Made by a program: the position numbers and the translations under genes
The notes under the pieces: generated by a model
What the model was told of the DNA's origin: nothing
The model's input: only the letters and a program-made list of their open reading frames with translations
The model's database searches: none
In this document: positions 5,436-44,808 of the stretch, in pieces
How positions within the stretch are numbered: position 1 is the stretch's first letter
Layout of the letters: every line of letters starts with the position of its first letter
From: Nemertoderma westbladi
Taxonomy: Eukaryota; Animalia; Xenacoelomorpha
Direction: 5' to 3'
DNA: 64,000 bases
Assembly: GCA_032718475.1 (NCBI GenBank)
Contig: JAUCBJ010001004.1
Location: 4,067-68,066 of the forward strand

Positions 5436-5583
5436 ACCCTACTACTTTGGTCCAAACGCTAAAATTGGGCTTGCCGAGCTACAATACCAAGCAACATACA
5501 GTAATATTACACTGCAAACTCAAATCTCACTGTCAATCGGGGTAGATGCAAAAGATGCCAAATTATATAGTTTATTTCCTGGT

Positions 5584-11510: not shown

Positions 11511-11795
11511 CTAATCACCAATATATTCTACACCTAAAGTCACAACACCAAACATTAATAAATAATTAACAAGTTTACTAAATATAGGGTAATAAATGTG
11601 AAATTTGCTAGGTGAACACATTAAAGTACATTTACCGGTATGAAAGCAGCAAATGACTACGGTATTATTTATTCTTATTTTGCAATTATTAAAAATTTCA
11701 GGTTCATATATAACTTGAAGTTGCACATTATCAAAGACAACATAAAACCCGGTATTGTTTATCAATAACCTATAGACTACAGACTTAATACTAAA
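11511..11795 (-). pseudogene. TBP-like gene of the Polinton, 3' half (split by element A)
   Basis: IYEPEIF...ICCFHTGKCTLM...YYPIF resembles TBP repeat 2 (YEPELF...LIFVSGKVVLTG...IYPIL). In frame with 44808..44539 after removal of A and one TSD copy. Confidence 0.8.
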
Positions 11796-11800
11796 AATAT

Positions 11801-13060
11801 TGTACGCGCTTTTGAAGACCTTTAGCAGTTTAACCTGCCAAAATTTATATGTCTTTTGGTTTATAAATAGACTTTAGAAGTTGACAAATATTTAATACCA
11901 ATAAACACAACATTAGCAGAAGCCAGCCTAGTGCGCGTCCATTCACCCGCTGGATATACCCGGGAGACTGGATTCTGAGGGCTTAGATTATTATTGCAGT
12001 GTAAGCTTACTGTATTATTCGATTGATCGTTAATAAATAATTTCTGACTAATATTATTCACTTTCGGGAAATATTAACAGTTCCTTTAGGACGTGGCGCT
12101 CTATCTAGGTAAACAGAGATATGACTTATACTAATCACAACGGTAAGTCGGTGAGGCTTATGATTCAAGTATGAGGCGCATTCTTTAGGAAATGCTTAGT
12201 TATCAGTCACAATCAGGCACACTACCGGTAACACACAATACTGCTCAATAATTTGCCGACCGTCAATGAATTTTATCATATATAAAGAGAACAGCAATGG
12301 ACTCATGTAGTGCTTATCAAATAGCATTAAATTCACTACAAACCACAATAATATAAGTCGCAATCGCTATATATAACCCGTCTCTCTAACCTGTAGTGTA
12401 TCAAGAAAATTGGGAAATTTGGGTTCTTTATAAATGTTCTCCAAATAATATTCAACCAAAACACAACAGTAAAAAGCATTAAGACGGTAGGTTAAGATAT
12501 GAAATGACAATGTATATGCCGATTGAGTCGAGTTGATTGAGTTGAGTTGATAACAGTTATACGCTCTATAATTTAAGCCTACTAATGTTTCTTCTAAAGT
12601 ATGAAAACGAATTGACTCTAGAGCCGGTGTTCCTGGCCTAGATAGAAACAACACAACAGTATCAAGAAAAAACAGTAAGACTGAACACTCCTAGTATGAT
12701 CGGCCGAATATCTCCACATCGACAGAAAAAATCGCTCTGATTGGCTTAAGCTAAACAAAGAACCATGTGTCCAATGGCCGTTTCCATGTCAGCAACCAGC
12801 TGTTAGATGTCGTAATCTGAATCATCAAGGCTAAGCTGTGTAAAGGTATTTGGTGCATTGCGGGTTTTTTGCCTTACCATGTCCGCCAAAGCACGTATAT
12901 AGAAGAATGACTTTTATGTCCGTTAAAACACCTATAACGGTACCTTGCGGGCGAGGGGAATATATATATAGTTAGAGAGCCTTTTAGAGTATTCCAGCGC
13001 CTGGGGGTAAACTGGATTGCGAAGCAAAAGGGCCAGTTATATCCCACAGAAGCTTTTACA
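11801..13060 (-). repeat. 3' LTR of element A
   Basis: Near-identical to 43279-44538 (about 7 substitutions seen by eye). Preceded on the minus strand by PPT-like ctgggagcgg. Confidence 0.95.
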
Positions 13061-13138
13061 CCGCTCCCAGAAAATGGGATTTGAGTCTATAAAATATACA
13101 AAATCACAGTTTCTAATATACGTAAATACTCTAAACAG

Positions 13139-14590
13139 TTAGTCTTTCTTGCGCGGACGGCGTTTACGCAGTTTTTTAAAGCTAGCCAGAGTCCTTTTCT
13201 CTTTGGGGCGAGCCACTTTACAAGGAGGGCTATAACTCCTGGGTGAAGGGTGCAATATGATTGCATCAGAGGGTGTAGGATTATGGTCGGTGTATCCGCC
13301 AGTCGAAGTACCGGGTTGATTGACATCAACGTCAGGGGAGAGGGGTCTAACGGCTTTGAGAGCTCGTTTCAAGACAGCCGCTCTTACGGGTCCTTTACGA
13401 GTGGTCTGAACGAGGGCCGTGGGTGGACCATAGGCAGTTAGAAACCTCCTGGGTTTAATGGTTCTTTCCAACTCGCATTCGCGGGCTCGGTATTCGTAAG
13501 GCCGTCGATATACTTCCTGTAACTCGGGGTGTGAGTTAACAAATAAGTCTCCATAGTCTGGGTCCTGACGGATATAATTGATTAAGTTATAGGAATGAAG
13601 GTCGCTAGGATTAACACTCCTAAGAAATTTGCGTACGAACTTGGTTGAAATACATTCTCCGACGCGCTTCAGTAGTTCGTAACTCGATATGCGTGATTTC
13701 TGTTCGACAGAAGCGGATAGGTAAGGATGGAACGCATAAACTCCTTCGTAAGCGCGTCCAGGATAATAGCGATGGCGCGAATCACAATGTAAATCAGCGT
13801 TCGCTTCCCAAGCTCTGATGTAACGTAGTGTGATCATTTCATCTACGCTTTCCAAATCGCGATTAAAAGGGCAATCGAAACTGGCGTGTCCCTTTAGTTG
13901 ACAATGGTGACATTGAGTCATAAATTGAGGGCAAACCGCAAAAATGTGCAAGTTATTGAGTCTGCAATACGCGCAATAAATTTCCATCGCCGGTTGTTCG
14001 TGGAAATAGGAACAGCGGACGACGTTTGTGTCCATGGGCGTAACATGGTCTCTCGATGCGCATAACCGACAACGTTGCCGAGAAACATAGTTGGCATGGC
14101 GATAATTGTACGCAGTGAGACACTGTGGACCTTGATACCATTCTAGGATGTAATCGTTGTCGCTGTTCCGGGCGCGATAGGCTGAATCTCCTCAGATTCT
14201 AGGCATATTGGTTCGTCTTCCCAGTCTGTTACGAATAGAATTTTCGTGATCTATTCTCGGTTTATCGTTACGACTCCGCTGGGTATAATATTTAAATAGA
14301 ACCATTTCCCTTTCGGTGTCTACATCGTCCGTATCATGTAAATCGATAGGATGGCAGGTAGTTAGGAAGTCCATATACGCACTATTACGATGCGTATAGC
14401 GAGCGGTGAATTTTCGATAGTCCAATTCACGCGTAAATTGCTCTTGGGACATCGGCGGTTCGATATAACGACCATCGTCCTCCGTAATGGTTGGATCGAT
14501 TTCACCGCGTATCAAGCTATCCACAAATGCTTGTAAAGGTAGAGTATATCGCTCCCTGATACCAAGATCATCTTCTATCAACTCCGTCAT
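13139..14590 (-). pseudogene. Accessory ORF of element A (Cys/His zinc-knuckle protein), internally deleted
   Basis: 14590..14192 and 14035..13139 are homologous to B ORFs 32435..32800 and 32894..34669; roughly 0.8 kb of the B sequence is missing at ~14225. Confidence 0.85.
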
Positions 14591-16224
14591 ATCTGCTATC
14601 TGAGTTTATTAATATCGAAATGAGTTTATGTTTAGGCGAGCGGACGTCGCTGCCTACCTCTCTTTGCCCCCGGACAGTGGGATTCTCAGCGCCGATGTAC
14701 CGTCGTCGCGGTGTTTACGCCAACATGTAGCAACAGCACGACAACGATAACCGGCACAAGTCACTCCACTGTCCGTCCCAAAGGCTTGAATCCACTTTAG
14801 GTTCTTTCTATAGGAGAGTTGGGCTACTTTCACAATTGCGACTAGCTACTGTAAACATACTTTAGCAGTAACATTCACCTATAAACGCACAAATTCCACA
14901 CAACTGTCACCAATTGTACACATACAGGCCATTTGTCCGTTAGTCAGTGCATTCCAGAATGTCACGTTATTACTGTATATCCTTGGATACTAACAGTGTG
15001 CTATGTATTCTCTATGCTATGCAATGGGACAAGCTTTCTATTGTTCTCTTAACTTGCTTCTAATTCTAGCGTGGGTGTTGCTATGGTGACATTATGGAAT
15101 GCTAGCGGTAGAATTAGGGTAATTCTCATGCATACAGATCTGGGATGCTATTTAATAATAATTCTTTAATTGTCAATATCCTCTTTATGGATGATTTTAT
15201 TAATTTTATCGGCTATTGACTATATGTTGGAGATTCTCGCACTCTAATACACTCAATAGGATGAATCTCCGCTCCCATGATCTATTAATTAATGGAGTTT
15301 TGGGAATGTTATAAATTGCACAAAATGACAATTTATGAAATTCATTTAAAATATGAATTTAAATCTATTCCCGTGAATTTTATTATTTGATGTTAAAATT
15401 GACACAATTTTTATTCCAGAGCACGTCTGGGGACTGAGGATCCTGAATTCTATAAATTGTCTTTTAAGAGTATCGGTAAGTGCTGCGATATCTTAATTGA
15501 CTAGAAATTTTAAAGGATCTGAATTTTACAGATTTTAATAAATATTAAATTAATATTTAAGATGGGCACCGATTTATTCCAGAACTTGTCTGGGGACGTT
15601 AACCACTGATTCTAGAATTTGTCTTTCAAGTATATCGGTGGGTGCCGCGATATCTTAATCGACTAGAATTACAGATGGTCAAAAGGTTTAACAGATTTAT
15701 TTGCGTTTTACGCTACTGTTATAGGGACATCACGCTACTATATGTATTATTTAATATAAGGTAGAAGAGCAATATCGCACGAAGCAATGTCAGTGTGAAG
15801 AGGCAAGTCGTTTCCAAGGTCTACCCAGAGCTTGGTTTAGCCGAGACACGAGGATCTGAACTTTGCATTCCTAATACTCTGCCTACCAATATACTTGAAT
15901 ATAGTAGTGGCTTTATTGTACTTTACTAAGTACGAAGTACGGACATTTCATCTTACTGTAGTCACGTATTTACAATATGATACGGACAGTAAGGAAAGAG
16001 AAAAATAATTATTTTCTCGCCGTCGCACTAAATATATATTATAAGTAATTACGTAAGTAATAAACACTAATACATTGCACTAATCTACTAAATAATCACT
16101 AAAATAACATTCTACTAAATAAAATTGAATAAAAGCGATTATAACAAAGTACATAATAAAGTTCGCATATAAAAATATAATAAAATATATAAAACAATGT
16201 AGTCATACACCCACTCCAGACGTA

Positions 16225-19126
16225 TCACGTTGGGGAGTCCCTAGATGTTTGAGGAATTAGGGAGGTGGTCGTGGGAAGAGTATCTTGCCTTCCATAGTTT
16301 CCGGAGAGTTCTCTGTCTCTTTCCAGTAAACATAAACGACCAACTGGGCGATTGAGTTGTTGCGTCTCAAAGATTATGCCTGGTTTCTTGAAGTTACGCC
16401 GCATGACGATGAGTTCTACCGAGCGTACTAAACCATCATCCGAGATGTGGGTCTCGATGATACGACCTGTCTGCCACCGTTTACGTGGGAGGTCTGGATC
16501 TACAATAAGCACCATATCTCCGGCGCTGACGTTTTCTTGCTGCGCAAACCACTTAGTTCGAAGTTGTAGCGTGGGCAGATAATGTTTCTCGAAATGGTCA
16601 GCGAAACGACGGGATAGCAACTGCATAAGTTGCCAAGTTCGACGGCAGTATTCGTCTCCGTCGGCAATCTCCGATCGTGGGAGCATGGCTACAGGTTTCT
16701 TCAGTAGGAAGTGCGCGGGTGTTAGAGCTTCCAGGGAATCGGGACTCGATGAGACTGGCATCAGCAGTCTCTCGTTGAGATAGGCAGCTATTTCCTCCAT
16801 TAACGTCCGCAAAAGTTCGTCGGTGAGATACGCGCGGCATGGCACTATAAAGTGAAATGCGGTCTTAACACTTCTAATTAATCAGCTGGTCGTCCACCTG
16901 TCTTTGGTTCCAGTCCTTCACGTAAGCCTGTATTTCGTTGTTGGCACCAATGAAGTTCGTTCCCTTATCAGATCTCATGGTATTACTCGTCCCGAAGCGA
17001 GCGATCTGTCGGCGTAAACTTAAGACGAAGCTGTTGGTAGATAGATCGTTCACCATATCGAGATGGATGGCTCTACAAGTCATGCATACGAAGATGACAC
17101 ACCATCTCTTGACTATAGTCCTCGCACGATATACTTCGATAGGGCCAAATAAATCTACACCAGTATTAGTAAAAGGTGGTTCATAGAAGCTTACTCGTTC
17201 CCTAGGTAATTCTGCCTCTCGCTGTGTTAAAGGCCTACTGAATGCTTTCCTACAGGGTATGCAGTTCCTAAGAACTTGGTTCAGAGCTCTACAGGGTTTA
17301 TCAAAATAATAGCGAGTTCGAATTTCGCTAAGAACTCGTTCTCTACCAGCATGATAAAGTTTGCTGTGGACATCTACAATCATCTTGATTTGTACTTCAA
17401 GATTTCTAATGAGTATGGGGAATTTAGTGTCAAAGGATAATGGCGCATTGGTGAGTCTTCCTCCAACACGTATTAACCCATCTATCATTGTGCTAGAGAA
17501 TCGATCCCTTAAGCGCATCTGCGGATTTCTCAACAACAGGAAATACTTATCGGAATCCTCATAGCATTGCAGGAGTCTCAGTATCTGCTTATTTGTTTCT
17601 TCATGCTCCTGGTGACTAATTTTCTCCTTTAGAAAACGGTCAGATGTCTTATATTTGGGTAAATTTTTAATAACATGAACTTGCGCAGATGTCAATGGAG
17701 CGGTATCACTAATGGTCTTCGTCCTGGAGTAGTGATGATGAAAACATCGCCTTAAATATGTGACGGCTTTACAGAGCCGATTCCAGGAACTGTAGTGATG
17801 CATTGCTCTCTGCAGCATGGGTGAGATTCCTTGCGAGACGTCTGGTATTCCAGATTTCCAATCTCTATCTCTAATTTCCACAACAGACTTATTTGTGGTG
17901 AGGGATTGTGGATCCGAAGCATCGTTTCCGGAAGTATGTAATACAGATAGATCGATAGTCGGTTTAAATAACTTCGATTTACTCGCCCGGGTTTTAGGTT
18001 TGACTGTCTCCGCTCCCTTGGCTTGTCTAATCTCCGCCGTAATAAGGTGAGGAGGCCATTCATCCTCTTCCTTGCTCAGGAAGTCGGGTCCACCCAACCA
18101 GTCTGGAGTATCTATCAGTTCCTGTGGAGTTGCTCCCCTGGAGGCGATATCGGCTGGATTAATCGTACCAGGGCAATGTCTCCATTGATCTATCTTTGTG
18201 CGACTAAGAATAATAGCTACCCTGTTAGTAACAAAAACGCTGAACTGACAGACTTCATTGGTTAGATACTCCAACACGAGTAAAGCGTCGGTCCAATAAA
18301 CCGTTTTCTCCAGTGGATAGTCGATTTGTTCCGTTACGTTCCGGCCGATGGCTGTAGCGTATAAAGCCGCCTTTAACTCCGCTCGAGGAACCTTTAACTT
18401 GTTGTTAATCAATGCCTTAGAGGTAACCAAGGCGACTTTGATTCCATCCGGGGTTTCGACTCGCAGATATGCTACTATACCTATTCCCATGTCGCTGGCG
18501 TCTCCAAACACATGGAGTTGATAGGAATACGTAGGAAGAACATGGCCAAAATATGCACGGGAAATTATAAAGTTCTCGATGGCAGGTAGAGAATCTTCCC
18601 ATTTCATCCATTTCTTTAACAATTCTCCCTTAAGCGGATCGTCCCATGAGTGGTTTTCAAGCCACATTTGTTGTACTAAACTCCGAGCAATCAATATAAC
18701 TGGGCTAATAAATCCCAATGGGTCGAAATAAGTGCTCAGGATACTTAAACAAATCCGTTTGGTCCGAACTGGATTATCTCGCTGTTTTAACTGAAAAAAC
18801 AGGATGTCTCTTTCAGTGTCCCACTTCAAGCCAAGCGTCTTGGTTTCAGGAAGATCGTCCTTTATTAAGTCTAGATCTTTCGCTCCTCGGTCTGCTACCG
18901 GTATAGCTTCCAGAAACTCACGGGAGTTGCTGGTGAATTTCGTCAGTCGAAATCCACCTCTTTTCAAACACTCTACCGTTCCTTTTGCGACATCTATGGC
19001 TTCTTCTACTGATGGAAGGGACCTTAAATTGTCGTCCATGTATATATTCCGTTTGATGTTGTCTATCACCTCTTTTGAGAAGGAGTCTCGGTTGTCATGG
19101 AGCAGGCGTTGGAAGGGCTTGATATG
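16225..19126 (-). pseudogene. Element A pol, 3' part (RT C-terminus, RNase H, integrase)
   Basis: YMDD, LHVFGDAS, NPADIASRG, GVDLFGP, SDKGTNF, YLPTLQLRTKW. Small deletions at ~19097 and ~16875 relative to B. Confidence 0.92.
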
Positions 19127-20332
19127 TGTAAAAGCTTTTGTGGGATAACTGATTCGTTTGCCTTGTTGGCCAGTTCCCCCCCAGTCGCTAGAATACTCTC
19201 AAAAGGGATCTATAGCTAAAAATAGTGCAAGTTACCAGCTTATTGGCTGATTTGTTGTACGCAGGCATCTGGGCTCTGTTTAATCGGCCAACAAGCCTAG
19301 GGAGGTTGCATCATAGCCTTGTTTTTGTATCTCCCAATAGAATTTGAGTTAGCCTTGATTTTGACCTATCACAGAGCTACTGAACTGAAATTTTCCTATC
19401 TCACTGCTCTTTCTCTGTGTTGAAAGGGAGCTTCGTGGAATAAGGGTAGTTGGTATCCTCGTATAGAGCAGTAGTCACGAGTTTTTCAAAGCCACGAAAG
19501 AACGGCTTTGTAGTGTTTTATGCTTTCTGCTTTTTAGCTCAACACTAGTAGGTTTAATTATAAGGACATATATCCTTTAACTGGCGACCGCATTTGACAC
19601 ACCGTACCACACGGCTTTTAATAACTGCTGAAACTGCTAAAATTTACCTGCTCAATCAATACTGTGTACTGCTATTTGTTGTCGGTTATTCATTATATTG
19701 GTTGATGAATTATTATATTGGAATAACGAGAAATAACCCCGACACCCAATATTCTTGATATACCGAAGGTAAGAGAGAAAGGTTACCAATAACGATTGTG
19801 ACTTATGTTAAAGTGGTTTGAAGTGAATCTAATGTTATTTGATAGACCCTACATGAGTCAGTCTGTGTTCCTTTTATATGTGACTAAAATCAGTGAAGAT
19901 TGGCAGATTAGTGTGCAGTATTGTGCAGCATTGTGTATGAGTGAGTCTGTTAAAGAAGCATTTCCTAAAGAATGCGCCATATATGTGAATTATAATTAAG
20001 CCATATCGTTGTGAGTAGTTTAAGTCATAACTCTGTTTATATAGATAAAGCGCCACGTCCTAAAGGAACTGTTAATATTCCCCGAAGGTGAATAATATTG
20101 TCAGAGATTATATAATACTGTCAGTCGAATAATACATTAGGCTTACATAGCAATAAAATTAAACCGTCGAACCCAATCTCCCGGGAATATCCAGCGGGTG
20201 AATGATCGCGCACAGATTGGTTTCGACTAGTGTAGTGAATCAAATACTTGTCATAGGCTAAAAAGCGATTTAATATCTAGAAGACATCTTAATTTGGCGG
20301 GTTAAACTGCCAAAGGTCTGAAAGCGCGAACA
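19127..20332 (+). repeat. 5' LTR of element B
   Basis: Near-identical to 34748-35953 (2 substitutions noticed). Confidence 0.95.
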
Positions 20333-20409
20333 TTAAAGGATATAGCTTCTTTATTGCAGTAAGCAATAAAGTTGAAAGTACCGGTCAACCGGTAAACCTG
20401 AACGGTACA

Positions 20410-21240
20410 TCTGTAGGTCAGTAGGCCCAACCGCCAGAACCGGTACTGCCGTAGGTCCGTAGGTCCAACTGCCAGAACCGGTACTTCTGTAGGTCCGTAG
20501 GCCTAGCTGTCCTAACCGGTACTTCCGTATAAGTACACTAGTATTATTCGATTTGATTGTTGCATACCGGTAGGCTGTTAAGGGATTAGGGATTGATCAC
20601 CCCTTATTCCTTTATATGGTTTACTTATTTCTGTCAAGTTTTATTTATTTGTAGGCCAGTATTGAACAGAAGGCGTGTAAACCTGATCAGATTGTACAGA
20701 CGATTTGTAGGCTGAGCTGTTGTCTGATTGCTGTTAAGTCCGAACGAATTGCAGTGTGTGTAGATCACCTGTCCGATTAAGTACGGTTAGGAAGTAGGGG
20801 CAGCGAATGCTGTAAGGTAAACCCTCAACTAAAGAATAAGTCGTACTACTGGGTTAGAACGTATACTCCCTAATCATTTCGGAGTCTGCATGTCCTGTAG
20901 TTTATTTAGGCTTGAGAGTAGTCTGCCATCGTTTAGTCTGTACTTTGTTTGTGTAAGTCTGTACGGGTAGCGTATAATTTTATTTAGATAATTTGTAGGC
21001 TGGATAGTTGTCTGGCTGTTATTAGGTCTGAACGGATTGCAGTGTGTGTAGATCACTTGTCCGATTAAGTACGGTTAGGAAGTAGGGGCAGCGAACGCTG
21101 TAAGGTAAACCCCCAACTAAAGAATAAGTCGTACTACTGGGTTAGAACGCATACTCCCTAATCATTTCGGAGTCTGCATGTCCTGTAGTTTGTTTAGGCT
21201 TGATAGTAGTCTGTCAGTGTTCGGTCTGCATTTTGTTTGA
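20410..21240 (+). repeat. Leader repeats of element B: ~38-bp tandem x3 and a ~290-bp duplication
   Basis: gtaggtccgtaggtccaactgccagaaccggtac units at ~20411-20525; ~20750-20950 is repeated at ~21040-21240. Equivalent repeats occur in A (~42400-43210). Confidence 0.75.
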
Positions 21241-22587
21241 GTAGTTTGTACGCGTAGCGTAATATTTATTATTCAGAGTTTATGCGATTATCCGCAACAT
21301 TCATTCCCCAAGTTTGTTCCTACAGTAATTGTGTTTGTTATACATACCGCTATAGTTAAATTAACCCCGGTACTACACGGGCTGCTTGGCGTAGGTAAAG
21401 ACTGGTGATTCTGTGCATCGGTCACTCCAGCAGATGCCGTGGTTCTTTTAGCTGTTCAAGTATATTTAACTACTGATTATCTGTTGTACAAGTACTCGTA
21501 CCTAATTTAGGGTTTAGTGTACAGTGCTTTCCGAAAGTAATTAGTGAAGACATTATATTTGTGTTGTAAAGTGGTTGATAGGCACGTTCGATTAGCTCTA
21601 TTAACTTCTAGGTAGGAACACTCCGTGATACATAACGTAGAACCTATAGCGATACGGCTATAGGTCGTCAGGCGGTGGTATTTTCCTATCTGGACAACGC
21701 AGTGTATTTACTACTACTTATTATTTCAAATACCGTAGTATCCTGTCCGTTGTAATAACCAGAATTCTAACCCTTTGTTAGGCTGGTTAGTAGACTTCTT
21801 GTAAAATTACCCTAAAAATTCGTATTTTGTGTTTTTTGTAAATTTTTGTGTTTATTTAGAGATTGTAATCTCAACCCGAATTGTACGTAATTTGTAGTAT
21901 TAAGTAACTTAGGTAAATTAGTATTATTTGTTTTAGTGTCCTATAAGTAACACTTCACTGAAAGCGCACCGCTTTGTGTAGTGATTACTCCCCAGAAATA
22001 ATAACATTTATTTCAAACATTGACTAAACCCATTCAAACGGGTATATATATATTATAAATCAAATCTAACAATTTATAAATAGTAGGCCTACCATATACC
22101 AATTAGGTCTCAATATCAGTTGGACTACTGCTTAAATAACGGTAATAAAGTAAGTTAAAGTAACCAAGTAACCCTAAAGTTCAGAAATTCAATTATTCTA
22201 AAATAATTGATATACCGGTATTTACGATAGGCCTATTATAATATTTATATTTGTGCTGAAAGCATACCGGTATTCTGTAATTAATTCAGTTAATAATTAT
22301 ACTTATATATACACTACAAACTGTCAGCTGTACCGGTATTCCCGATAGGCCTATTATATATTTATATATATTTGTGCTAAAATTATACCGGTATTCGGTG
22401 ATAAACCTAGTCTGTAATAATAGTTATATATACTATAAGCATACCGGTATTCTAATATATTATATATATATCACGCTACACTGAGTAGCAGTACCGGTAA
22501 TTAATTATTAGGCTAGCAGTTAATACTGAGTTACTAGACTTGCTCAGACTGTAATACAGCAGTAGACATTCAACTGTATACATAGTC

Positions 22588-32800: not shown

Positions 32801-32893
32801 CTCGAAGGATAGAACGTGGAAGAAGAATGCGAAATAGTTTTTCCTCTGCTCTACCATCGCTGTCGGAGAACATATTAGGCATACAATGGGAAT

Positions 32894-34669
32894 ATGGAGA
32901 ACATTCCATACCCTTTCGTTGATACTCAGCTGATTGCTCCTTGGGCCGAAGGCCGAGGTTTCTTTCGCACTATGTATGCCAATACACCCAGCGGCATTAC
33001 TAAAGTACAACGGACATCCATTGGACATCTTGCCTTTCAAGAATATGGTTGGAATTTCAAAGTTGGAAATCCTATAAATTACCAGCAAGTATATGGAGAT
33101 CATTACTCTCGTTTATATTTTGATGGACCATTAACTGCGCCTGGTGCCGTATATAGCTTTATGAGTGTTCCCCTTCGCCCTTCCTTAGCTATATACACGA
33201 TCTTTGAAAATGCAGCACTTGCCGGTTGGCTAGCCGATGTGTGCAGTCGTACCATACGCGCTCATCCGTTAATACTTGGAACTAAACTCGCCAAGTTAGA
33301 CGAACACAATAAGTTCATACGTTTCGAATGTTTCCGGCGCTTTCTGACTCCGTTCCGTAACGTCGATAGTCAGTTCAAGGATCGCGCGCTGACCAAGCTC
33401 AGTCTTAGAGACTCAGCTGCGGAGAAACTGAGTAGCGCTGGATTTGCCGTCTTTCAAGACGTTTGTATACAGAACCTACATTCATCCGTTATACAAAGAG
33501 CCCGAATATCTACAGGTTATTCTGTCGTGGAAATACAGACAGTGGGTCCACTTACGGAAACCGACGCACCCACTTCGTCTATGCAGCTGGAGGATGAACC
33601 AGTATGCTTGGAATCAGAAGCGATTCAACCTACGGCTTCTCGGAGCAGTGACAATGATTATGTCATAGAGTGGTATCAAGGTCCACAGCGTCTCACAGCG
33701 TACGATTATCGACACGCCAACTACGTTTCCCGAAAACGTTGTCGATTATGCGCATCGAGAGACCACTTCACTCCTCTAGACTCGAGCGTACCTTGTTCCT
33801 ATTTCCTCGAACAACCGATGATGGAAATATATTGTGCTTATTGCCGGCTTAATAACTCTCATATATTTGCCGTCTGCCCACAATTTATGACTCAATGTCA
33901 CTACTGCCAACTTAAAGGACACGAAAGTTACAATTGTCCCTTTAATCGCGATTTAGAGAGCGTAGACGAGATGATCACCCTGCGATACATCCGAGCTTGG
34001 GAAGCGAACGCAGATTTACATTGCGAATCCAGACATCGCTATTACCCTGGACGAGCTTACGAGGGAGTTTACGCGTTCCATCCTTATCTATTCGCGTCGA
34101 TTGAACAGAAAACACGCGTACCAAGTTACGAGTTAATAAAGCGTGTTGGTGAGTGTATTTCCACCAAGTTTGTCAGAAAATACCTTAGAAATGTCAACCC
34201 TAATGATATAACCACATATCACCTGATCAATTTTATCCGTCAGGACCCTGAGTATGGCGACATTTTCGTGAACTCGCATCCTGAACTCCAGGAAGTATCT
34301 CGGCGCCCATATGAATATCGAACCCGAGAACGCGAGCTGGAGAGAACCATTAAACCGAGAAAGTTCCTCACCACTCACGGTCCACCCACCGCTAGTGTCC
34401 AGACGACCCGTCAAGGACCCGTAGGAGCTGCTGTCCTGAGACGCGCTCTAAAGGCCGTTAGATCTCACTCCACTGAGGTTGATATTAATCAACCAGGTAC
34501 TTCGACTGGCGGGTATACCGATCGTAACCCTGCACCTTCTGATGCAATTATATTGCACCCTTCGCCTAGGAGCTACAGCCCTCCTCGTAAAGTGGCTCGC
34601 CCCAAAGAGAAAAGGACTCTTGCTAGCCTTAAGAAACTGCGTAAACGCCGTCCGCGCAAGAAAGACTAA
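32894..34669 (+). CDS. Element B accessory protein with Cys/His clusters, a CCHC knuckle and a basic NLS-like tail (not env-like)
   Basis: CRLCASRDH, CAYCRLNNSHIFAVC, CHYCQLKGHESYNC; tail LKKLRKRRPRKKD. No obvious signal peptide or TM segment. Conserved in A. Confidence 0.85.
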   Translation: MENIPYPFVDTQLIAPWAEGRGFFRTMYANTPSGITKVQRTSIGHLAFQEYGWNFKVGNPINYQQVYGDHYSRLYFDGPLTAPGAVYSFMSVPLRPSLAIYTIFENAALAGWLADVCSRTIRAHPLILGTKLAKLDEHNKFIRFECFRRFLTPFRNVDSQFKDRALTKLSLRDSAAEKLSSAGFAVFQDVCIQNLHSSVIQRARISTGYSVVEIQTVGPLTETDAPTSSMQLEDEPVCLESEAIQPTASRSSDNDYVIEWYQGPQRLTAYDYRHANYVSRKRCRLCASRDHFTPLDSSVPCSYFLEQPMMEIYCAYCRLNNSHIFAVCPQFMTQCHYCQLKGHESYNCPFNRDLESVDEMITLRYIRAWEANADLHCESRHRYYPGRAYEGVYAFHPYLFASIEQKTRVPSYELIKRVGECISTKFVRKYLRNVNPNDITTYHLINFIRQDPEYGDIFVNSHPELQEVSRRPYEYRTRERELERTIKPRKFLTTHGPPTASVQTTRQGPVGAAVLRRALKAVRSHSTEVDINQPGTSTGGYTDRNPAPSDAIILHPSPRSYSPPRKVARPKEKRTLASLKKLRKRRPRKKD

Positions 34670-34747
34670 CTGTTTAGAGTATTTTTATATTTTAGAAACT
34701 GTGATTTTGTATATTTTATAGACTTAAATCCCATTTTCTGGGAGCGG

Positions 34748-35953
34748 TGTAAAAGCTTTTGTGGGATAACTGATTCGTTTGCCTTGTTGGCCAGTTCCCC
34801 CCCAGTCGCTAGAATACTCTCAAAAGGGATCTATAGCTAAAAATAGTGCAAGTTACCAGCTTATTGGCTGATTTGTTGTACGCAGGCATCTGGGCTCTGT
34901 TTAATCGGCCAACAAGCCTAGGGAGGTTGCGTCATAGCCTTGTTTTTGTATCTCCCAATAGAATTTGAGTTAGCCTTGATTTTGACCTATCACAGAGCTA
35001 CTGAACTGAAATTTTCCTATCTCACTGCTCTTTCTCTGTGTTGAACGGGAGCTTCGTGGAATAAGGGTAGTTGGTATCCTCGTATAGAGCAGTAGTCACG
35101 AGTTTTTCAAAGCCACGAAAGAACGGCTTTGTAGTGTTTTATGCTTTCTGCTTTTTAGCTCAACACTAGTAGGTTTAATTATAAGGACATATATCCTTTA
35201 ACTGGCGACCGCATTTGACACACCGTACCACACGGCTTTTAATAACTGCTGAAACTGCTAAAATTTACCTGCTCAATCAATACTGTGTACTGCTATTTGT
35301 TGTCGGTTATTCATTATATTGGTTGATGAATTATTATATTGGAATAACGAGAAATAACCCCGACACCCAATATTCTTGATATACCGAAGGTAAGAGAGAA
35401 AGGTTACCAATAACGATTGTGACTTATGTTAAAGTGGTTTGAAGTGAATCTAATGTTATTTGATAGACCCTACATGAGTCAGTCTGTGTTCCTTTTATAT
35501 GTGACTAAAATCAGTGAAGATTGGCAGATTAGTGTGCAGTATTGTGCAGCATTGTGTATGAGTGAGTCTGTTAAAGAAGCATTTCCTAAAGAATGCGCCA
35601 TATATGTGAATTATAATTAAGCCATATCGTTGTGAGTAGTTTAAGTCATAACTCTGTTTATATAGATAAAGCGCCACGTCCTAAAGGAACTGTTAATATT
35701 CCCCGAAGGTGAATAATATTGTCAGAGATTATATAATACTGTCAGTCGAATAATACATTAGGCTTACATAGCAATAAAATTAAACCGTCGAACCCAATCT
35801 CCCGGGAATATCCAGCGGGTGAATGATCGCGCACAGATTGGTTTCGACTAGTGTAGTGAATCAAATACTTGTCATAGGCTAAAAAGCGATTTAATATCTA
35901 GAAGACATCTTAATTTGGCGGGTTAAACTGCCAAAGGTCTGAAAGCGCGAACA
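34748..35953 (+). repeat. 3' LTR of element B
   Basis: Copy of 19127-20332, preceded by PPT-like ctgggagcgg. Confidence 0.95.
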
Positions 35954-35958
35954 ATATG

Positions 35959-38900
35959 ATTCCAAAAGCCTGGATGGTCATCCAGTACTCTACCGGTTTC
36001 TGATTGAGGTCTCCTTCCGGCCACCACAGAAATCTCAGGCTGTCTCTATCTCTATCCAGCGCCTTGACTTGTAAGAACATTCCTTCTATATCGGAGGCGA
36101 ACGCGATGGAATATTGTCTTAATCTTAAAAGTATTCCCAACAAAGATTGGAGTAAGTTGGGTCCTGGTAACAACTCGGAATTGAGGGATTGGCCCATATA
36201 TAGGGCGGAGCCATCGAATACGACTCGTACTTCGTGGGGTTTACCGGGTTTGGGAACGTAATGATGTGTTAAGTAATACGTTCTCTCAGTCACTGGTGTT
36301 CCTTCCGGTACTCGCTCCGCGTATCCCTTTGTTATAAATTTCTTCAGCTGAGTTTGGTACATTTCTTTAGCTGAAGCATTAGCCGTAAGTCGTCGATGTA
36401 ATTGAGCGATTCTTTTCTCTGCCAAGGGTCTGTTATTTATAAATCTAGGTTCTCGTTTTCGAAATGGTAGGCCAATTTCATATCTACCTTGGTCCTTTAA
36501 AAAACGTGTAGTTGTTTCCTGGATTTGCTTGGCTCTTTCTTCTTCTATCGATAGGGCCTTATCATATGAATTGGGCTCTACCAGTTCTTGAGTAAAGAAT
36601 CGTACGGCTAGTTCGTCCCGAGTTCTAGCGTTGTAGCGCTCTATCTCATCGTTTAGTTCGTCATTGTAAGCGATGGGTTCCGATGGGCGAATCAGTTGAC
36701 ATAGGTTCACCTGATTTTTCCAAGTTTGGTTTTCTGTAAGTAGGTCGATTGTGTTCTCTTCATCGAAGAGTTGGTAGATGTCGTCATTATCTGAAGAGTA
36801 TGGTGTTTCCTCAGTTAGTTCGTCCACCTCACTGCTCTCCTCGCTCCAATCGTTTACTTGGTATATTCGTTCTTGTGGCATTCTCTCTTCGAGAGTCCTG
36901 CGGGAAGGGCCAGTAAAGTACCAACCTACTCTAGTTCTTACCGCATAGGTTTGCAGTGGCTGTGGTTGAGCAGGCCGTTTCTCCAATGTTTCGAGCGCCT
37001 CATGCGCGTTTTGGCCGATGAGTATTTGCACTCCAGGATAATCTGTCTGGAATCGAGGTATCTTAAGATGTTGGATACTCTCATCTTCGTCCCAATTATA
37101 AAGGTCTGCCTGAGTAGTGGCGAAGTTCTTTATAGCCACCATTTTTACCGACCTTATACCTTGTGCTCCTAATTTATCCTGGGGGGTGGACAACACACCT
37201 ACATAGTAATCTGCCGTTAGGGTAGATTTCCAAACCTGCATAATTCCTGACATATTCAATTTAGTCCGGAATTTGGGTTGTCCAGCAAAGATATCTTCGG
37301 CTAGTTCTTGATCGATGAATGTTCCTGTGTTGCCGGAGTCAAGGAGGGCGTTCACTATGTAACTTTTGTTAGGACCGTGAACTCTTACCTGCACTACAGG
37401 AAATTCTCTGATTCCTACGTTGGAAGTTGGAGCTTTCCAAGATGGTTGTTTGGCAAAAGTAGTTGGGGGAAACTCATTGTTGGTGTCCTTTTCATAAGTA
37501 AGTGCTCGATACACTGAGGTATTGATTAGATAACAGGATTCGTTGGCGTCGGAGAATTCGTCAGTATAGAATCCTTCCATCTCAGACTCCTGATCAGTGT
37601 CATTTACATCACTGAATTGGACATGTAGTTCGGGCTCACTTACCTGACTCTGTTTGTCTCGTTCGAACTCACTGTGTAACAAGATGTGATGTTTCGCGCC
37701 ACACTTTGCACACTTTACGTCGGAGTAACAGGTTCGCCGTTGGTGTCCTGGTCTGAGGCAATTATAACATAACCGCTTGTCCCACACGACTGCACGTCTG
37801 TCTACAAGGGATTTCTTTAGAAATTCAGCACACGCACTCAAACGGTGGGTCCCGTCGCACAACGCACAGTTAGGTTTTATGTTACTCACTTTACCTTGGG
37901 TAACTTGATGCACTCTCGTTTTTTCTTCGGGTTTTCTTCGGTGCATTCTGTTAGGAGACTGAGGGGGGGTCTTGGCAACCTGTTCTCTCCTATTGTTGTT
38001 TCGAGCCTTGTATTTACTTACGTCCTTTGAGGTTTTGTCAACATAGTAAGATCGATCGGTGTCTTTCCCGCTGTCCTCTTCTTGAGAAGCTTGGCTTTCG
38101 CCGTCGTCAGTGTAACACACCGGTGTTACTCTTCTCCTAGAAGCGGGTTTCTCACTTACCTTATTTTCCGATGTTTTCTCTCTGGACTGCTTGATGAGTT
38201 GTAGTTTTACCTCACCATCTAAGAAGGACATGAGATCAGCCATGGTAGGGCTTCGTCGTTGTTATTCATTCATGTACAACACTTTCTTGTCCCAGCGTAT
38301 ACATACTCCACCCTTGGGTAAAGTAGAGACTACGGCTCCAATAACCATGGAACTCTGATATTCATGAGACTTACCTAACCAGTCCAATTGTCTACAGATC
38401 TCATGAATCTCATCGGAAAACTCTATAATCCCGCTACTAAGGAAGTTTCGGGGGGCTACTAATTTTGCATACAAATACTTAGCTATGTTATCCTTGTTAC
38501 CATACCTGATGTTTAATGTATCCCAAACTTGTCTTAATCCTTCTGGATGTCCAATAAACTTTAACGCCATTAACTTGGGAGGTCCTTCCAAGCACTTGAT
38601 GAGGAACCTAAGTTTCTCTCCATTAGATAGCACAGAGTTCTGTATGCTGTCTTTGTAATATTCGTTGAAAGGTAACCATTTCATCTCATCTCCATTGAAT
38701 TTGACGATCTCTCCCACTTTGACCGCTTGGCGGGCTTCTGTTCTAGCCATCTGACGCGTAAAGCTTTCTTGGGCCATCGTGTTATTTAATATCGAATTAT
38801 CGGTATATAAATTTCTCGGATCATTGTCAGGTCTATAGGGGATATCATTAATAACAGGTCTATAATCACCCTTAATAGGGTTTGCTATAGGAGTTTCTAC

Positions 38901-41045
38901 TTCACTAGCAGTATAGATGCGTGTAGGCTCCACACCTTGCGCATGTAATACTTCAGACCTAACAGGTTGACACAATGTTACAGGGGGTATTGGTATGCCT
39001 TTTTGTATATTGACTAATTTGTCGCGTTCCAGTGCGATACTTTGCTGCACTTCTTGCAATTCTGCCCTACCTTCCCTTACTGTTCCCTTAAGCTGGTGGA
39101 CAGTCTCCTGCATCTGTCCGAGCAGGAGATTCATCCCCCGCCGTCCCTCCTCTACCCACTCGACCGCCGAAGCGGGAGTCGCCAACATTGTAGCGGGCTG
39201 ACGCGGGACGACGGGAGACAAATCTTTGATTTCTCTCTCAGCTTCCAGGACAGGGATATTCTCATGGACTGTTCTACCGGGTACAGGCAGTGTAGTACTG
39301 TGTAAAGGGAATTTGGAGTTAAGCTCTGGAAGTACAGGGGTCTCTAGCACAGAAGTGACTTTGGGAACGACAGGCCTAATTATTTCAGGCTCATCAACTA
39401 TTGTAGGGAGTCTTTTGACCTGAATAATTTGTTCTGTGGGTTCTGTACTACCTAAGTCTGTGCTAGTTAGTTGTCTTCTAACCGCCGGGGGCAAATCAGG
39501 CAATTTGTGACGGTGAGATGTTTTTCTACGCCTGCTTGGACGAGATCTATTTCCTCCGCCTTCAGGATCAGTGGTCTCGCCTTCCTCCGATGATGTGTAT
39601 CCTTGGCGCTTGGGAGTAGATCGACTCCTCATCTGCATTTGACTAGCAGTTAACTGTTTATTTATGCAGTCTTGCGTCTCTTGAAGATTTTCCAACTCCA
39701 GTTGTGTGGTCTCTTCAGACGCTCTCTGTTCTGCGTCTGCCAATGCCATTGCTGCTGCTGCTTTGGCTGCTTCCACTGTCGCTGCAGCTTTTGCTTCTGC
39801 CTCTTCCACTGCCGCTGCTGCCTTTGCCTCTTCCACTGACGCTGCCGCTTTCGCCGCTGCTACTGCCTTTTTGTCCTTTATCCGTTTTTTCTTTACTCGT
39901 TCTTCTTGGACTCTAGTGAGGCGGAGTTTTTCATCAAATTCAGCTTGGTTAGCAGCTAACATTTCAGCATCGATTGAGTCTAACACACGCTGGGTTCCTT
40001 CACTATTAGGGGTAAGTCCAGATAACCGTCTCCTCAACTCCTTGTCTCCTAGGAATCGCTGATAGTCGGACAGATAAATGTCTATGGCGTCTCTCGTTCG
40101 TGGTCTCTCTGCAGTCTCTTCGCCTTCCACTTGAGAAAGGGTGGCATCGGTTGGTTCTTCATAGGTTAGTCTCTCAGACAGCTGGGATTTCCACTGGTCC
40201 GTTTCTTGTACTTTGAGACCTACCCGCTGGAACCAAGTTTTGACAGCAACTTGCAGCGACGTGTCCTGTCTTCTTTTGGAAGTTTCCTCAAAGGCTGATA
40301 GGATTAATCTAATGCGTAGGGTTCTTTCGCGTACTTGATATAGCAGCTCTTCCTGCTCTTGAGGTCCTTGGGGTTGTCAAAACAGTTGTTCTTCTAATCG
40401 CTCCAAGGAGCCGAAGAATCCCTGCACATATCCTGCTGCCGACCTCTTCCAAACAGCTGGATCCATTGTATCTTTAGTCACTCCCATCCTGTGTATATCT
40501 TCCCAAGTAGCTTCGGACAAATCTAACGGGAGTCCGGGTCCGGGAAAGTTCCATTGTGACTCGACAATCGACATCAATTCTTCCCTGGCGTATCCCGCAT
40601 AATTATCTTGGGTCGCTCGCTTACTTCTCGTCCAATCGGCTTGATGTTCCTCCACCGCAATCAATATAGTAGTTAGCACTGCGGCAGGAAGGGTGAGAAG
40701 GGGGTCCGAGTAGGTTGTAGCCGCCATCTGCAATCCGCGTTCGGGGGTCAGCTCGACAGTATCCGAACTACTGGAGCTATCGGATCGCTGGGAACAAGTT
40801 TCTTGACTAGGCTGTTGCTGCTGTGGGACAGCTGCTTCCTGGTTCCGTTTGACTTGGGCCCGAGTGCCGATGATAGACCTACGGTGTTGGATTAGCTTAG
40901 GGTCTGATACTACTACTGGAGGGATGACCTTTCTTTCAGTAGGAGGTGAGCTGAACTCCTTTCTTAATCGCTCCACACTCCTATCTGTGTCACAGATGGT
41001 TGTATCGATTAGACTGTCTGACAGGTTTTGCTGAGTGTCAGACAT
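35959..41045 (-). pseudogene. Element A gag-pol, 5' part (Gag, Zn knuckles, protease, RT N-terminus)
   Basis: Homologous to B throughout; in-frame stops at 40377-40379 and 38262-38264; cut by the B insertion. Confidence 0.92.
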
Positions 41046-43278
41046 GTTTAGCTATACGGTTGAATGCCTACTGCTATAGTTACAGTTAAAGCAAGTCTAG
41101 TAATTCAGTATGACCGTTGGCCTAGTACCGGTAATTTAGTACAGTATATTAGAATACCGGTATACACTTATAGTATATATAAGTATTGTAAACTAGGTTT
41201 ATCACAGAGTACCGGTATATAAATTTAGCACAAATATATAAATATATAATAGGCCTATCGTGAATACCGGTATACCACTTACACTTATAGTATATATAAG
41301 TATAATTATGAACTAGAATTAATTACAGAATACCGGTATGATTTCAGCTCAAATTTATAGGAATAAATATAATAAGCCTATGGTAAATACCGGTATGTCA
41401 ATTATTTTAGAATAATTGAATTTCTGAATATTTTAGGGTTACCCGGTTACTTTAACTTACTTTATTACCGTTATTTAAGCAGTAGACCAACTGATATTGA
41501 GACCTAGTTGTTGTATGGCAGGCCTACTATTTATAAATCGTTTGAGTTGATTTATAATATATATATACCCGTTTAAAATGGGTTTTGTCAATATTTGAAA
41601 TAAATGTTATTATTTCTGAGGGAGTCACTACACAGAAGCTGTGCGCTCTCAGTGAAGTGACACTTATTTGACGCTAAAACAGATAATTCTAATTTACCTA
41701 AGTTACTTAATACTACAAATTACTTACGATACGGGTGAGATTAAATCTCTAATTAAACACAACAAAAATATTACGTACGAAATTTTAGGGTAATTTTTAC
41801 AGGAAGTCTACAAACCAGCCTAACAAAGGGTTAGAATTCTGGTTATTACAACGGACAGGGTACTACGGTATTTAAAAATAATAAGTAGTAGTAAATATAT
41901 TGCGCTGTCCAGATAGGAAAATACCACCGCCTGACGACCTATAGCCGTATCGCTATAGGTACTACGTTATGTATCACGGAGTGTTCCTACCTGGAAGTTA
42001 ATTACCGTGGACTACCAGATCCAACGTGCCTATTAACCACTTTACAACACAAATATACTGCCTACACACTAATTACTTCGGAAAGCACTGTACACTAAAC
42101 CCTAAATTAGGTACAAGTACTGGTACAACAAATAATCAGTAGTTAAATATACTTGAACAGTTAAAAGAACCATGGCATCTGCTGGAGTGACCGAAGCACA
42201 AAGTCACCAGTCTTTTCCTACGCCAAGCAGTCCGTGTAGTACCGGGGTTAATTTAACTATAACGGTATGTGTAACAAGCACAATTACTGTAGGAATAAAC
42301 TTGGGGACATGAATGTTGCGAATAATCGCATAAACTCTGAATAATAAATATTACGCTACCCGTACAGAATACTCAAACAAATACAAACCAAACGCTGGCA
42401 GACTACCACCAAGCCTAAATAAACTACAGTATGTGCAGATTCCAAAATGGTTAGTTAGTATGCGTTCTAACACGGTAGTACGACTTATTCTTTAAGAGGG
42501 GATTGACCTTACAGCTATGGCTGCCCCAACTTACTAACTGGCACTTTATCAGACAAACTCTACACACGCAGCAATCTCTTCAGACCTAATAATAGCCAGA
42601 CAACAATCCAGCCTACAAAATATCTGAGTAATAACTATTACGGTACCTGAACAGACCACACAAACAAACACAGGCCAAAACGTTGGCAGAATACTGTCAA
42701 GCCTAAATAAACTACAGTATGTGCAGATTCCAAAATGGTTAGTTAGTATGCGTTCTAACACGGTAGTACGACTTATTCTTTAAGAGGGGATTGACCTTAC
42801 AGCTATGGCTGCCCCAACTTACTAACTGGCACTCTATCGGACAAACTCTACACACGCCGTAATCTCTCCAAACCCAACAACAATCTAACAACAGTCCGGC
42901 CTACAATTATCTGAACAATCTGAGCAGACTTACACGTCTTCAGCTCAATATTAACTTACATGTAAATAAAACCGACAGAAATAAGTAAAATCTCAATAAA
43001 AAACCAGGGCTGCAGTCCCTGATTAAATACTAAGACCTACCGGTATGCAATAATCAAAATCGAATAATACTAATGTACTTATACTGGAAGTACCGGTTAG
43101 GACAGTTGGGCCTACGGACCTACAGAAGTACCGGTTCTGGCAGTTGGACCTACGGACCTACAGCAGTACCGGTTCTGGCAGTTGGGCCTACTGACCTACA
43201 GAAGTACCGGTTTAGGTTTACCGGTCGACCGGTACTTTCAACTTTATTGCTTACTGCAATAAAGTCAATAACTGTTAT

Positions 43279-44538
43279 TGTACGCGCTTTTGAAGACCTT
43301 TAGCAGTTTAACCTGCCAAAATTTATATGTCTTTTGGTTTATAAATAGACTTTAGAAGTTGACAAATATTTAATACCAATAAACACAACATTAGCAGAAG
43401 CCAGCCTAGTGCGTGTCCATTCACCCGCTGGATATACCCGGGAGACTGGATTCTGAGGGCTTAGATTATTATTGCAGTGTAAGCTTACTGTATTATTCGA
43501 TTGATCGTTAATAAATAATTTCTGACTAATATTATTCACTTTCGGGAAATATTAACAGTTCCTTTAGGACGTGGCGCTCTATCTAGGTAAACAGAGATAT
43601 GACTTATACTAATCACAACGGTAAGTCGGTGAGGCTTATGATTCACGTATGAGGCGCATTCTTTAGGAAATGCTTAGTTATCAGTCACAATCAGGCACAC
43701 TACCGGTAACACACAATACTGCTCAATAATTTGCCGACCGTCAATGAATTTTATCATATATAAAGAGAACAGCAACGGACTCATGTAGTGCTTATCAAAT
43801 AGCATTAAATTCACTACAAACCACAATAATATAAGTCGCAATCGCTATATATAACCCGTCTCTCTAACCTGTAGTGTATCAAGAAAATTGGGAAATTTGG
43901 GTTCTTTATAAATGTTCTCCAAATAATATTCAACCAAAACACAACAGTAAAAAGCATTAAGATGGTAGGTTAAGATATGATATGACAATGTATGTGCCGA
44001 TTGAGTCGAGTTGATTGAGTTGAGTTGATAACAGTTATACGCTCTATAATTTAAGCCTACTAATGTTTCTTCTAAAGTATGAAAACGAATTGACTCTAGA
44101 GCCGGTGTTCCTGGCCTAGATAGAAACAACACAACAGTATCAAGAAAAAACAGTAAGACTGAACACTCCTAGTATGATCGGCCGAATATCTCCACATCGA
44201 CAGAAAAAATCGCTCTGATTGGCTTAAGCTAAACAAAGAACCATGTGTCCAATGGCCGTTTCCATGTCAGCAACCAGCTGTTAGATGTCGTAATCTGAAT
44301 CATCAAGGCTAAGCTGTGTAAAGGTATTTGGTGCATTGCGGGTTTTTTGCCTTACCATGTCCGCCAAAGCACGTATATAGAAGAATGACTTTTATGTCCG
44401 TTAAAACACCTATAACGGTACCTTGCGGGCGAGGGGAATATATATATAGTTAGAGAGCCTTTTAGAGTATTCCAGCGCCTGGGGGGAAACTGGATTGCGA
44501 AGCAAAAGGGCCAGTTATATCCCACAGAAGCTTTTACA
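43279..44538 (-). repeat. 5' LTR of element A
   Basis: Copy of 11801-13060. Confidence 0.95.
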
Positions 44539-44808
44539 AATATAAGTACATAAATTAACAGATTTTAAAATCAAATTAATACTAGTTTTATCAAATATAT
44601 GCTTTTTTACTTTTTGGAAATTATACTTACTGCCTAATAATGTAATACGACCATTTTTAAATATTAATAATGTGGCACCAAATATCTTATATATAAACTG
44701 ATTTGGTTTGAGTATGTGTTTACCAGGTAATTGATTTTTTAATTCTTTAAAATTAATCGCTGACACTTGCTGGCAACTTACATTCTTATTAACTATCTGA
44801 TAGTTCAT
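44539..44808 (-). pseudogene. TBP-like gene of the Polinton, 5' half
   Basis: YQIVNKNVSC...INFKEL...ATLLIFKNGRITLLGSK resembles TBP (TALIFSSGKMVCTGAK). Its start overlaps the pPolB stop by 20 bp. Confidence 0.8.

Follow-up and report, generated by a model that had tools for sequence, protein, structure and literature searches.

The question raised by this locus is whether an animal Polinton-type element encodes its own TATA-binding protein (TBP) and what such a protein would do. To our knowledge, there is no answer to how Polintons turn on their virion genes, and no paper on the question surfaced. The window, a stretch of 64,000 nucleotides from a Nemertoderma westbladi contig, was described in a first-pass annotation as containing a Polinton whose TBP-like gene is split by a retrotransposon.

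The TBP-like gene lies, as claimed, within an element with Polinton/Maverick (adintovirus-type) hallmarks: pPolB, capsid proteins, and a protease. The protein-primed family-B DNA polymerase (pPolB; 44789..48815, minus strand) is carried by two ORFs (45456-48815 and 44789-45409) and has 179 homologues at an E of ≤1e-20, and tblastn of relatives spans both ORFs. On the plus strand, two genes (5461..7051) match ORFs of related Polinton loci and are putatively penton/minor-capsid-like by this match and their position; the first is 5'-truncated close to a palindromic insert. They are followed by a basic 186-aa ORF (7053..7613) that may be core-protein-like by position and composition, for which a family search gave no convincing match; the major capsid protein (MCP) gene (7616..8875), which matches relatives and is broken into two ORFs; an adenain-type maturation protease (8878..9330; Peptidase_C5, E 8e-6); and a 198-aa ORF (9362..9958), putatively DEDD-nuclease-like by eye, with AATCATT upstream and no family match. 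Upstream of pPolB, a 347-aa ORF (49358..50401, minus strand) is preceded by TATAAA and AATCATT; it has no match in Pfam or PDB, and a candidate likeness to PC4 was not confirmed there. A 570-aa ORF with no family assigned (2472..4184, minus strand) is probably part of the element, as its upstream motif is common with element genes. None of 10 window proteins has an exact-sequence match in the protein collection. Integrase, packaging ATPase, and terminal inverted repeats were not detected in this copy, which is therefore filed as a decayed remnant rather than a complete element.

The gene was said to be split by a single 32.7-kb retrotransposon. An LTR insert with a 5-bp duplication does split it, but the insert consists of two nested BEL/Pao elements. 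The outer element, A (11801..44538, minus strand; 32,738 bp), has LTRs of 1,260 bp (11801-13060 and 43279-44538) differing at 7 positions, is flanked by an identical 5-bp target duplication (11796-11800 and 44539-44543), and contains DUF1759, Peptidase_A17, integrase H2C2, and DUF5641 domains. The inner element, B (19127..35953, plus strand), lies in the opposite orientation and has LTRs that are 99.8% alike and its own 5-bp duplication; its likeness to A is 77-87%. The TG..CA LTRs, 5-bp duplication, and Pao gag-pol domains are those of BEL/Pao elements, and the nested insertion into the TBP-like gene is recent.

Both pieces of the gene lie on the minus strand. The N-terminal piece (44539..44808; N-lobe) was recognized by Pfam TBP, a family profile, hhalign, and fold matches, and the C-terminal piece (11511..11795; C-lobe with the YEPEIF stirrup) by Pfam TBP, the profile, and hhalign. 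Read from 44808 to 44539, the N-piece translates to 90 stop-free residues, and 11795..11511 translates to 94 residues and then a stop; joined across the insert, they form the proposed open 184-aa frame, with a stop only at its end. The pieces were scored apart throughout, 184 aa being the sum of both. The start at 44808 falls within the C-terminal pPolB ORF (44789..45409), whose final 20 nt it overlaps, in agreement with the overlap previously noted. Other copies of the element include one contig and one loose end that continue beyond the insertion point into non-LTR sequence; 9 of 13 letters of the loose end, among them the nearest 7, are identical to the far flank. In the present copy, the TBP-like gene is broken and unable to make the whole protein.

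TBP is the best Pfam family of each piece, and both contain the TBP-like half-repeat motifs quoted in the first-pass annotation. Scored singly, the N-piece (E 4.8e-4, score 20.4) and the C-piece (E 2.5e-4, score 21.2) fall under the Pfam gathering cut-off for TBP (PF00352; 22.9). When aligned to a profile made from a metagenomic family of intact TBP-like proteins, the N-piece matches positions 4-66 (30.6 bits) and the C-piece positions 102-142 (19.0 bits), far above the maxima of 2,000 shuffles per piece (11.5 and 7.9, respectively), and the two map in order to the N- and then the C-lobe, without overlap, as tandem TBP lobes. Only the two piece-bearing frames among the 1,047 stop-to-stop frames of the window match this profile (E 1.9e-8 and 3.8e-5; next 1.8). 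Hhalign probabilities are 89.8 for the N-piece and 77.3 for the C-piece; little was gained on the pieces from PHROGs and NCBIfam, with NCBIfam TBP matching the N-piece at an E of 0.044. The single-sequence model of the N-piece is weak (pLDDT 53), and its top three fold matches are TBPs at Z 5.1-5.9 (under 8); Foldseek with the same model gave no match at an E of ≤0.001. Homologue searches returned no match at an E of ≤0.001 among 1.84 billion representatives for the C-piece and 0 of 77 longer candidates for the N-piece, and 0 of 39 pattern matches to the pieces in IMG/VR were homologues. Independently, both pieces have the same intact top match, L038:14633-15142, when searched against 115 pPolB loci (3,979 frames; E 0.0023 and 0.0093). 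Judged by sequence homology, the split gene is a TBP homologue in both pieces, and the proposed TBP-like identity is upheld.

Three further Polinton-type contigs (L038, L085, and L117) carry intact TBP-like genes, and the value of the present copy, which is dead, is as a pointer to this intact family. The L038 gene passes the Pfam TBP cut-off (E 2e-15), and the Pfam TBP E-values for L085 and L117 are 7e-8 and 6e-16. The L038 protein is homologous to 81 of 105 candidate clusters at an E of ≤1e-3, and proteins of its family comprise the core only (150-207 aa). The predicted model of this intact relative (pLDDT 91) shows the full TBP saddle, with a Z of 17.1 to human TBP (rmsd 2.8, 167 aligned) and the first non-TBP row of the fold search at a Z of 8.1, and also matches TBPs of NCLDV in BFVD. 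In the two members that provide genomic context for the L038 family (L038 and L117), TBP immediately precedes the packaging ATPase, and the L117 contig carries ATPase, integrase, and TBP. The L085 contig carries pPolB, integrase, ATPase, protease, MCP, and TBP, the last placed two genes after the packaging ATPase. The position next to pPolB is not conserved. TBP was detected in only 2 of 115 pPolB loci, and in 2 of the 18 with both integrase and ATPase, so most relatives either do without a TBP or conceal one that has diverged further. In IMG/VR, the family scan picked up a single contig (L116), which is from a giant virus and bears a host-like TBP; in GTDB, it picked up one Polinton-type contig (L117) and one host-like TBP (L118). 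L116 and L118 served as host-like references only. The L085 TBP has no relative in IMG/VR and may stem from a second capture.

Canonical TBPs intercalate four Phe and contact bases through two Asn (PMC12529657, accessible part), and two C-lobe Glu contact TFIIB (PMC7221094, accessible part). The pieces have three Phe (second, third, and fourth), one Asn (the first), and both stirrup Glu (E31 and E33 in the C-piece); they lack Pro as well as the first Phe and the second Asn, both of which are absent in either alignment register. The three Phe and first Asn are retained family-wide, the YEPE(L/I)F stirrup is found in 60 of 65 family rows, and an N-x-N strand is found in 56 of 60 rows and also in the window. 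The L085 TBP keeps only the second TFIIB-contact Glu. In separate lobe trees, which have long branches (2.8 and 4.4) and include only two host-like TBPs, both pieces group on the L038-family side (95/88 and 98/98).

The suggestion that the TBP drives the capsid genes found no support in the upstream regions. The sole enriched motif, AATCATT, occurs upstream of five of nine starts (protease, TBP, and three other genes), with TATA-like words ~28-36 nt ahead of it, and its enrichment was equalled in 2 of 2,000 random sets; penton-2, core, MCP, and pPolB have no such motif upstream. The initiator-like copy of the TBP-like gene (44890..44896, minus strand) lies 84 nt before the start, within the pPolB coding sequence. 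The MCP start has an ordinary TATAAAAG at -45. No variant TATA box is enriched before three or four structural (capsid) gene starts, a comparison of low power; a TAAGA box lies within 130 nt of only two of four structural starts, and the TATAAGA/TAAGA late box is not enriched here. The AATCATT/TATA layout resembles an ordinary promoter of the host and could be read by host TBP; L038, L085, and L117 show no enrichment of it.

On balance, we favor the reading that the gene is real but broken and codes for a divergent, two-lobed TBP of an element of the Polinton/adintovirus type, and that its intact versions probably function as a minimal viral promoter factor predicted to recruit host TFIIB and RNA polymerase II. 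TBP and TFIIB are a textbook pair that needs DNA. The intact protein would bind the element's own TATA-like sites and recruit host TFIIB and RNA polymerase II and is likely to be a one-protein adaptor drawing host transcription machinery to element promoters. Retention of three Phe suggests DNA bending, and the missing first Phe, second Asn, and Pro, together with the gained N-x-N strand, suggest an altered sequence preference. Host TFIIB would be used, given the retained E-P-E stirrup and a search of limited reach in which one TFIIB query matched none of the 3,979 locus frames and nothing in the window. The divergent N-lobe may permit evasion of host TBP regulators, and the protein may strengthen element transcription or give it a second wave. 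With its TFIIB stirrup and altered DNA face, such a self-encoded TBP core would allow the way Polintons turn on their virion genes to be tested with a single small natural protein.

The combination of retained TFIIB-contact Glu and lost first Phe, second Asn, and Pro would also fit a decoy or repressor that binds DNA poorly and soaks up host TFIIB or occupies promoters, damping host or early element transcription, as would findable element promoters that appear host-readable. We consider this unlikely, as the three Phe and first Asn are retained across the family and published viral TBPs are activators with altered DNA surfaces (PMC12529657, accessible part). It is quite improbable that the protein is nontranscriptional and serves packaging, integration, or the start of replication by bending AT-rich DNA of the element. 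In L038 and L117 its gene adjoins the packaging ATPase, close to the integrase, and here it adjoins pPolB, and no matching capsid-gene box was found, but the gene neighborhood is variable and the conserved stirrup is best explained by TFIIB contact. Little credence can be given to the gene being a host TBP that was captured and then drifted in the element with no function. Very long tree branches and decay of the remainder of the copy are compatible with such a passenger, whereas the derived features are common to the pieces and the intact metagenomic family and not to host-like TBPs, both pieces are stop-free, and three of the five N-piece differences listed among other copies are silent, with no indel among those listed. 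Chance joining of two unrelated frames, with which the sub-cut-off Pfam score of each piece would agree, is already largely refuted by the matching target duplication and LTR ends, the nonoverlapping lobe placement far above shuffles, and the single intact top match shared by both pieces.

The favored minimal promoter factor can be compared with known systems. A Polinton TBP is not wholly unreported: the label "TBP" is defined in the Fig. 5 legend on MELD viruses of Starrett et al. 2021 (PMC8502044), which, with adintovirus-like PolB, likewise have a TBP-like gene in a midsize polinton-type virus. In the accessible part of that paper it is a legend label, without carrier, family, residues, or function in the text, whereas a residue pattern, an 81-cluster family, and contexts are given here; the accessible part of its supplement has no match for TBP or TATA. 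In the openly accessible literature searched, TBP is tied to these viruses only by figure legends in PMC8502044 and its preprint 10.1101/697771. PMC11071308 mentions neither TBP nor TATA, and the accessible parts of PMC12220804 and 10.1101/2022.05.25.493380 contain nothing relevant.

The Polinton proteins share with cellular TBP (PF00352) the two-lobed saddle (in the L038 model), the YEPE(L/I)F stirrup, and three Phe. They differ in the ~21% identity of L038 and its lack of an N-terminal extension, in the N-x-N first strand, and in the loss of the first Phe and second Asn and, in the window pieces, of Pro. Giant viruses (NCLDV) are dsDNA viruses that also encode TBPs, and these are matched by the L038 model; in the accessible part of PMC7221094, they are often divergent at the TFIIB site and paired with a viral TFIIB, whereas the TFIIB query matched nothing in these Polinton loci. 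The vTBP of beta/gammaherpesviruses, KSHV ORF24, is also virus-encoded and has a more polar, Asn-rich DNA face, and a viral TBP with extra Asn drives viral promoters (PMC12529657, accessible part); ORF24 N425/N427 resemble the Polinton N-x-N strand by spacing alone, unaligned. As described in that paper, ORF24 is a large multidomain protein of a six-protein complex, with four Phe, no TFIIB glutamates, and direct Pol II binding, whereas the Polinton TBP is a bare core (184 aa; family, 150-207 aa) with the glutamates and without Pol II-binding extra domains. If our reading is true, viral TBP use would extend from large DNA viruses to elements of 15-25 kb. Tentatively, a widespread clade of animal Polintons/adintoviruses might use a minimal, rewired TBP in place of host TBP on element promoters, with TFIIB and Pol II still supplied by the host. 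Such a one-protein switch of viral transcription would be the simplest form of what herpesviruses and giant viruses achieve with large complexes and a sign of a staged viral life cycle.

The gene for the TATA-binding-protein (TBP)-like protein lies on the minus strand as two open frames, as annotated: an N-piece of 90 residues (44808..44539) and a C-piece of 94 residues plus a stop (11795..11511). At its start the gene overlaps the final 20 nt of the pPolB frame, in line with the claimed overlap. The first-pass annotation attributed the split to one retrotransposon. An LTR insert (11801..44538) with a 5-bp duplication does separate the pieces, but it comprises two BEL/Pao elements. The insertion is recent, as the 1,260-bp LTRs of the outer element differ at only 7 positions and the 5-bp duplication flanks both ends. 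The inner element (19127..35953) lies on the opposite strand, with LTRs 99.8% alike and a 5-bp duplication of its own. The nested elements are related, ~16 kb each and head-to-tail in opposite orientation, with long LTRs (1.2 kb). Each carries an additional ORF 3' of pol (32894-34669, 591 aa; counterpart 13139-14035) that no Pfam family matched convincingly. Elsewhere, the window contains another BEL/Pao pol fragment (51357-53408), repeats resembling satellite DNA (53612-54349), unassigned ORFs at 55218-56791, and two intronless host-like genes 28 nt apart (60386-62551): a ThiS-family (MOCS2A-like) ORF and a Rubisco-LSMT-domain (SETD3-like) ORF that contains a 13-aa repeat.

The Polinton TBP gene is real and divergent, and it is dead in the window copy. 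The pieces were always analysed apart. PF00352 was the top Pfam family for both the N-piece (E 4.8e-4, 20.4 bits) and the C-piece (E 2.5e-4, 21.2 bits), neither reaching the cut-off of 22.9. Direct database searches with either piece as query gave no match. Among PDB sequences, the top match of the N-piece was an archaeal TBP (E 0.01), and the sole match of the C-piece was unrelated. The single-sequence model of the N-piece was weak (pLDDT 53); a fold comparison with 48,161 chains ranked three TBPs first (Z 5.9, 5.6 and 5.1), narrowly ahead of KA1 domains (5.0), and taken alone this ranking is not decisive. A profile of TBP-like proteins homologous to an ORF of L038, a Polinton-type contig, matched the N-piece at positions 4-66 (30.6 bits; best of 2,000 shuffles, 11.5) and the C-piece at positions 102-142 (19.0 bits; best of 2,000 shuffles, 7.9). 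Against this profile, the best of the remaining frames in the window (1,047 in all) reached just E 1.8.

Intact relatives were found among 115 loci gathered by pPolB similarity (35 IMG/VR and 80 metagenome). Both pieces ranked the same ORF, L038:14633-15142 (169 aa), first of 3,979 frames (E 0.0023 and 0.0093). It clears Pfam TBP (E 2e-15) and neighbors pPolB, KilA-N, ATPase, and rve-chromo integrase genes. The same contig encodes two similar 150-aa ORFs (13037-13489 and 17674-18141) of no recognised family. Homologous clusters (81 of 105 candidates, 33-85% identity) are nearly all metagenomic. An AlphaFold2 model from an alignment of the L038 protein and 64 of the 81 clusters, leaving out 17 mostly short rows, had a pLDDT of 91; its five top fold matches were TBPs (Z 17.1-14.4, ~167 aligned), the next scoring Z 8.1. 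L117 encodes a TBP (E 6e-16) in the TBP-ATPase-integrase order of L038. This 3.8-kb Polinton-type contig is filed in a bacterial MAG, where misbinning is likely; the eukaryote-type TBP of L118 is likewise in a bacterial MAG. L085, a Polinton with pPolB, integrase, ATPase, protease, and MCP, has a more distant TBP (Pfam E 7e-8), which may be an independent capture. This ORF (8426-8914) is of a different type, with a short N-lobe and one stirrup Glu, and adjoins a dUTPase-like gene in a complete Polinton gene set. The check proposed at first pass, for a TBP beside pPolB in other Polintons, turned up intact genes in L038, L085, and L117, but adjacency to pPolB is not conserved. Carriers make up 2 of the 115 pPolB loci, or 2 of 18 if a locus must have integrase as well as ATPase; many of the loci are short and a few are duplicates. 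Polinton TBP is a recurrent accessory gene, neither core nor tied to pPolB.

The window element is a decayed copy, in a genome judged animal-like from its BEL/Pao elements and the named pPolB relatives. MCP and pPolB are both split across two frames, and neither an integrase or ATPase gene nor a terminal repeat was detected in the window copy. A tandem-repeat tract occupies 10420-11400, a region in which genes for integrase and ATPase could have been expected, and a 307-bp palindromic insert with 53-bp inverted ends (5130-5436) cuts the first penton-like gene. In four sequencing runs (three studies, one organism), 35-58% of sampled words from the pPolB side were present. Against 44000-45600, one contig spans 44538-44827 and continues with 74 letters unlike the LTR, and at the insertion point a single loose end matches the far flank at 9 of 13 letters, with the 7 closest all matching. 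These data suggest, rather than prove, that copies free of the insertion exist in the organism, reads having been checked on the N-piece side only. Other copies differ at at least five places within the N-piece; of the five differences listed, three are silent and none is an indel.

The first-pass annotation suggested that the TBP-like protein may drive the capsid genes. The window does not show such a role, as the motif AATCATT is absent before penton-2, core, and MCP (and also before pPolB), and a TAAGA box, found only before core (-107) and protease (-106), is not significant. The MCP start has TATAAAAG at -45. Nine gene starts were scanned, leaving out the truncated first penton, and AATCATT lies within 100 nt of five: those of the 570-aa ORF, protease, 198-aa ORF, TBP-like gene, and 347-aa ORF. 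These exact copies (4279, 8832, 9333, 44896, and 50448), each with a TATA-like word ~28-36 nt upstream, are five of the eight AATCATT sites in the element. When nine windows were drawn at random 2,000 times, 2 of the sets contained some heptamer as enriched as this. No AATCATT enrichment was detected in L038, L085, or L117. The motif resembles the TCAGTY/TCATT initiators listed in an excerpt of PMC1779564. The 570-aa ORF (2472-4184), which carries this upstream motif, is intronless and without a family match; the 347-aa ORF (49358-50401), upstream of pPolB, is PC4-like by eye, without a Pfam or PDB sequence match.

In lobe trees of 21 of the 65 family rows, with few outgroups and long branches, both pieces group with the L038 family (95/88 and 98/98), and the L085 TBP groups with the host-like pair. 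Residues were compared with two host-like TBPs (from L116, a giant-virus contig, and L118) and 60 of the 65 family rows, the five without the cut motif being dropped. Of the four Phe, the window pieces retain all but the first, and of the two Asn only the first; both YEPE(I/L)F stirrup glutamates are present, and the Pro that follows the third Phe is missing. An N-x-N first strand is shared by the N-piece and 56 of 60 family rows, and a K-P-x-Q motif is also common to both. Family rows were trimmed at the stirrup motif, so its high count in the family is built in.

A search of limited reach detected no TFIIB in either the window or the fetched loci. Together with the residue pattern, including both glutamates, this suggests that the protein is a bare TBP core and would rely on host TFIIB. 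The Polinton TBP is somewhat more probably than otherwise a promoter factor working with host TFIIB. A decoy function is unlikely, and a role as a non-transcriptional DNA bender slightly more so. That the gene is a passenger is improbable, and a chance join of two unrelated frames is highly implausible. A 'TBP' label is defined in the Fig. 5 legend of Starrett et al. 2021 (PMC8502044), on MELD viruses with adintovirus-like PolB; searches of the literature turned up no study on the L038-type Polinton TBP family.

Excerpts of PMC7221094 assign TFIIB contact to the two glutamates and describe viral TBPs as usually divergent there and often paired with a viral TFIIB, whereas the window pieces keep both. 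KSHV ORF24, as described in part of PMC12529657, keeps four Phe, has added Asn residues, and lacks the glutamates; the window pieces, in contrast, have three Phe and both glutamates.
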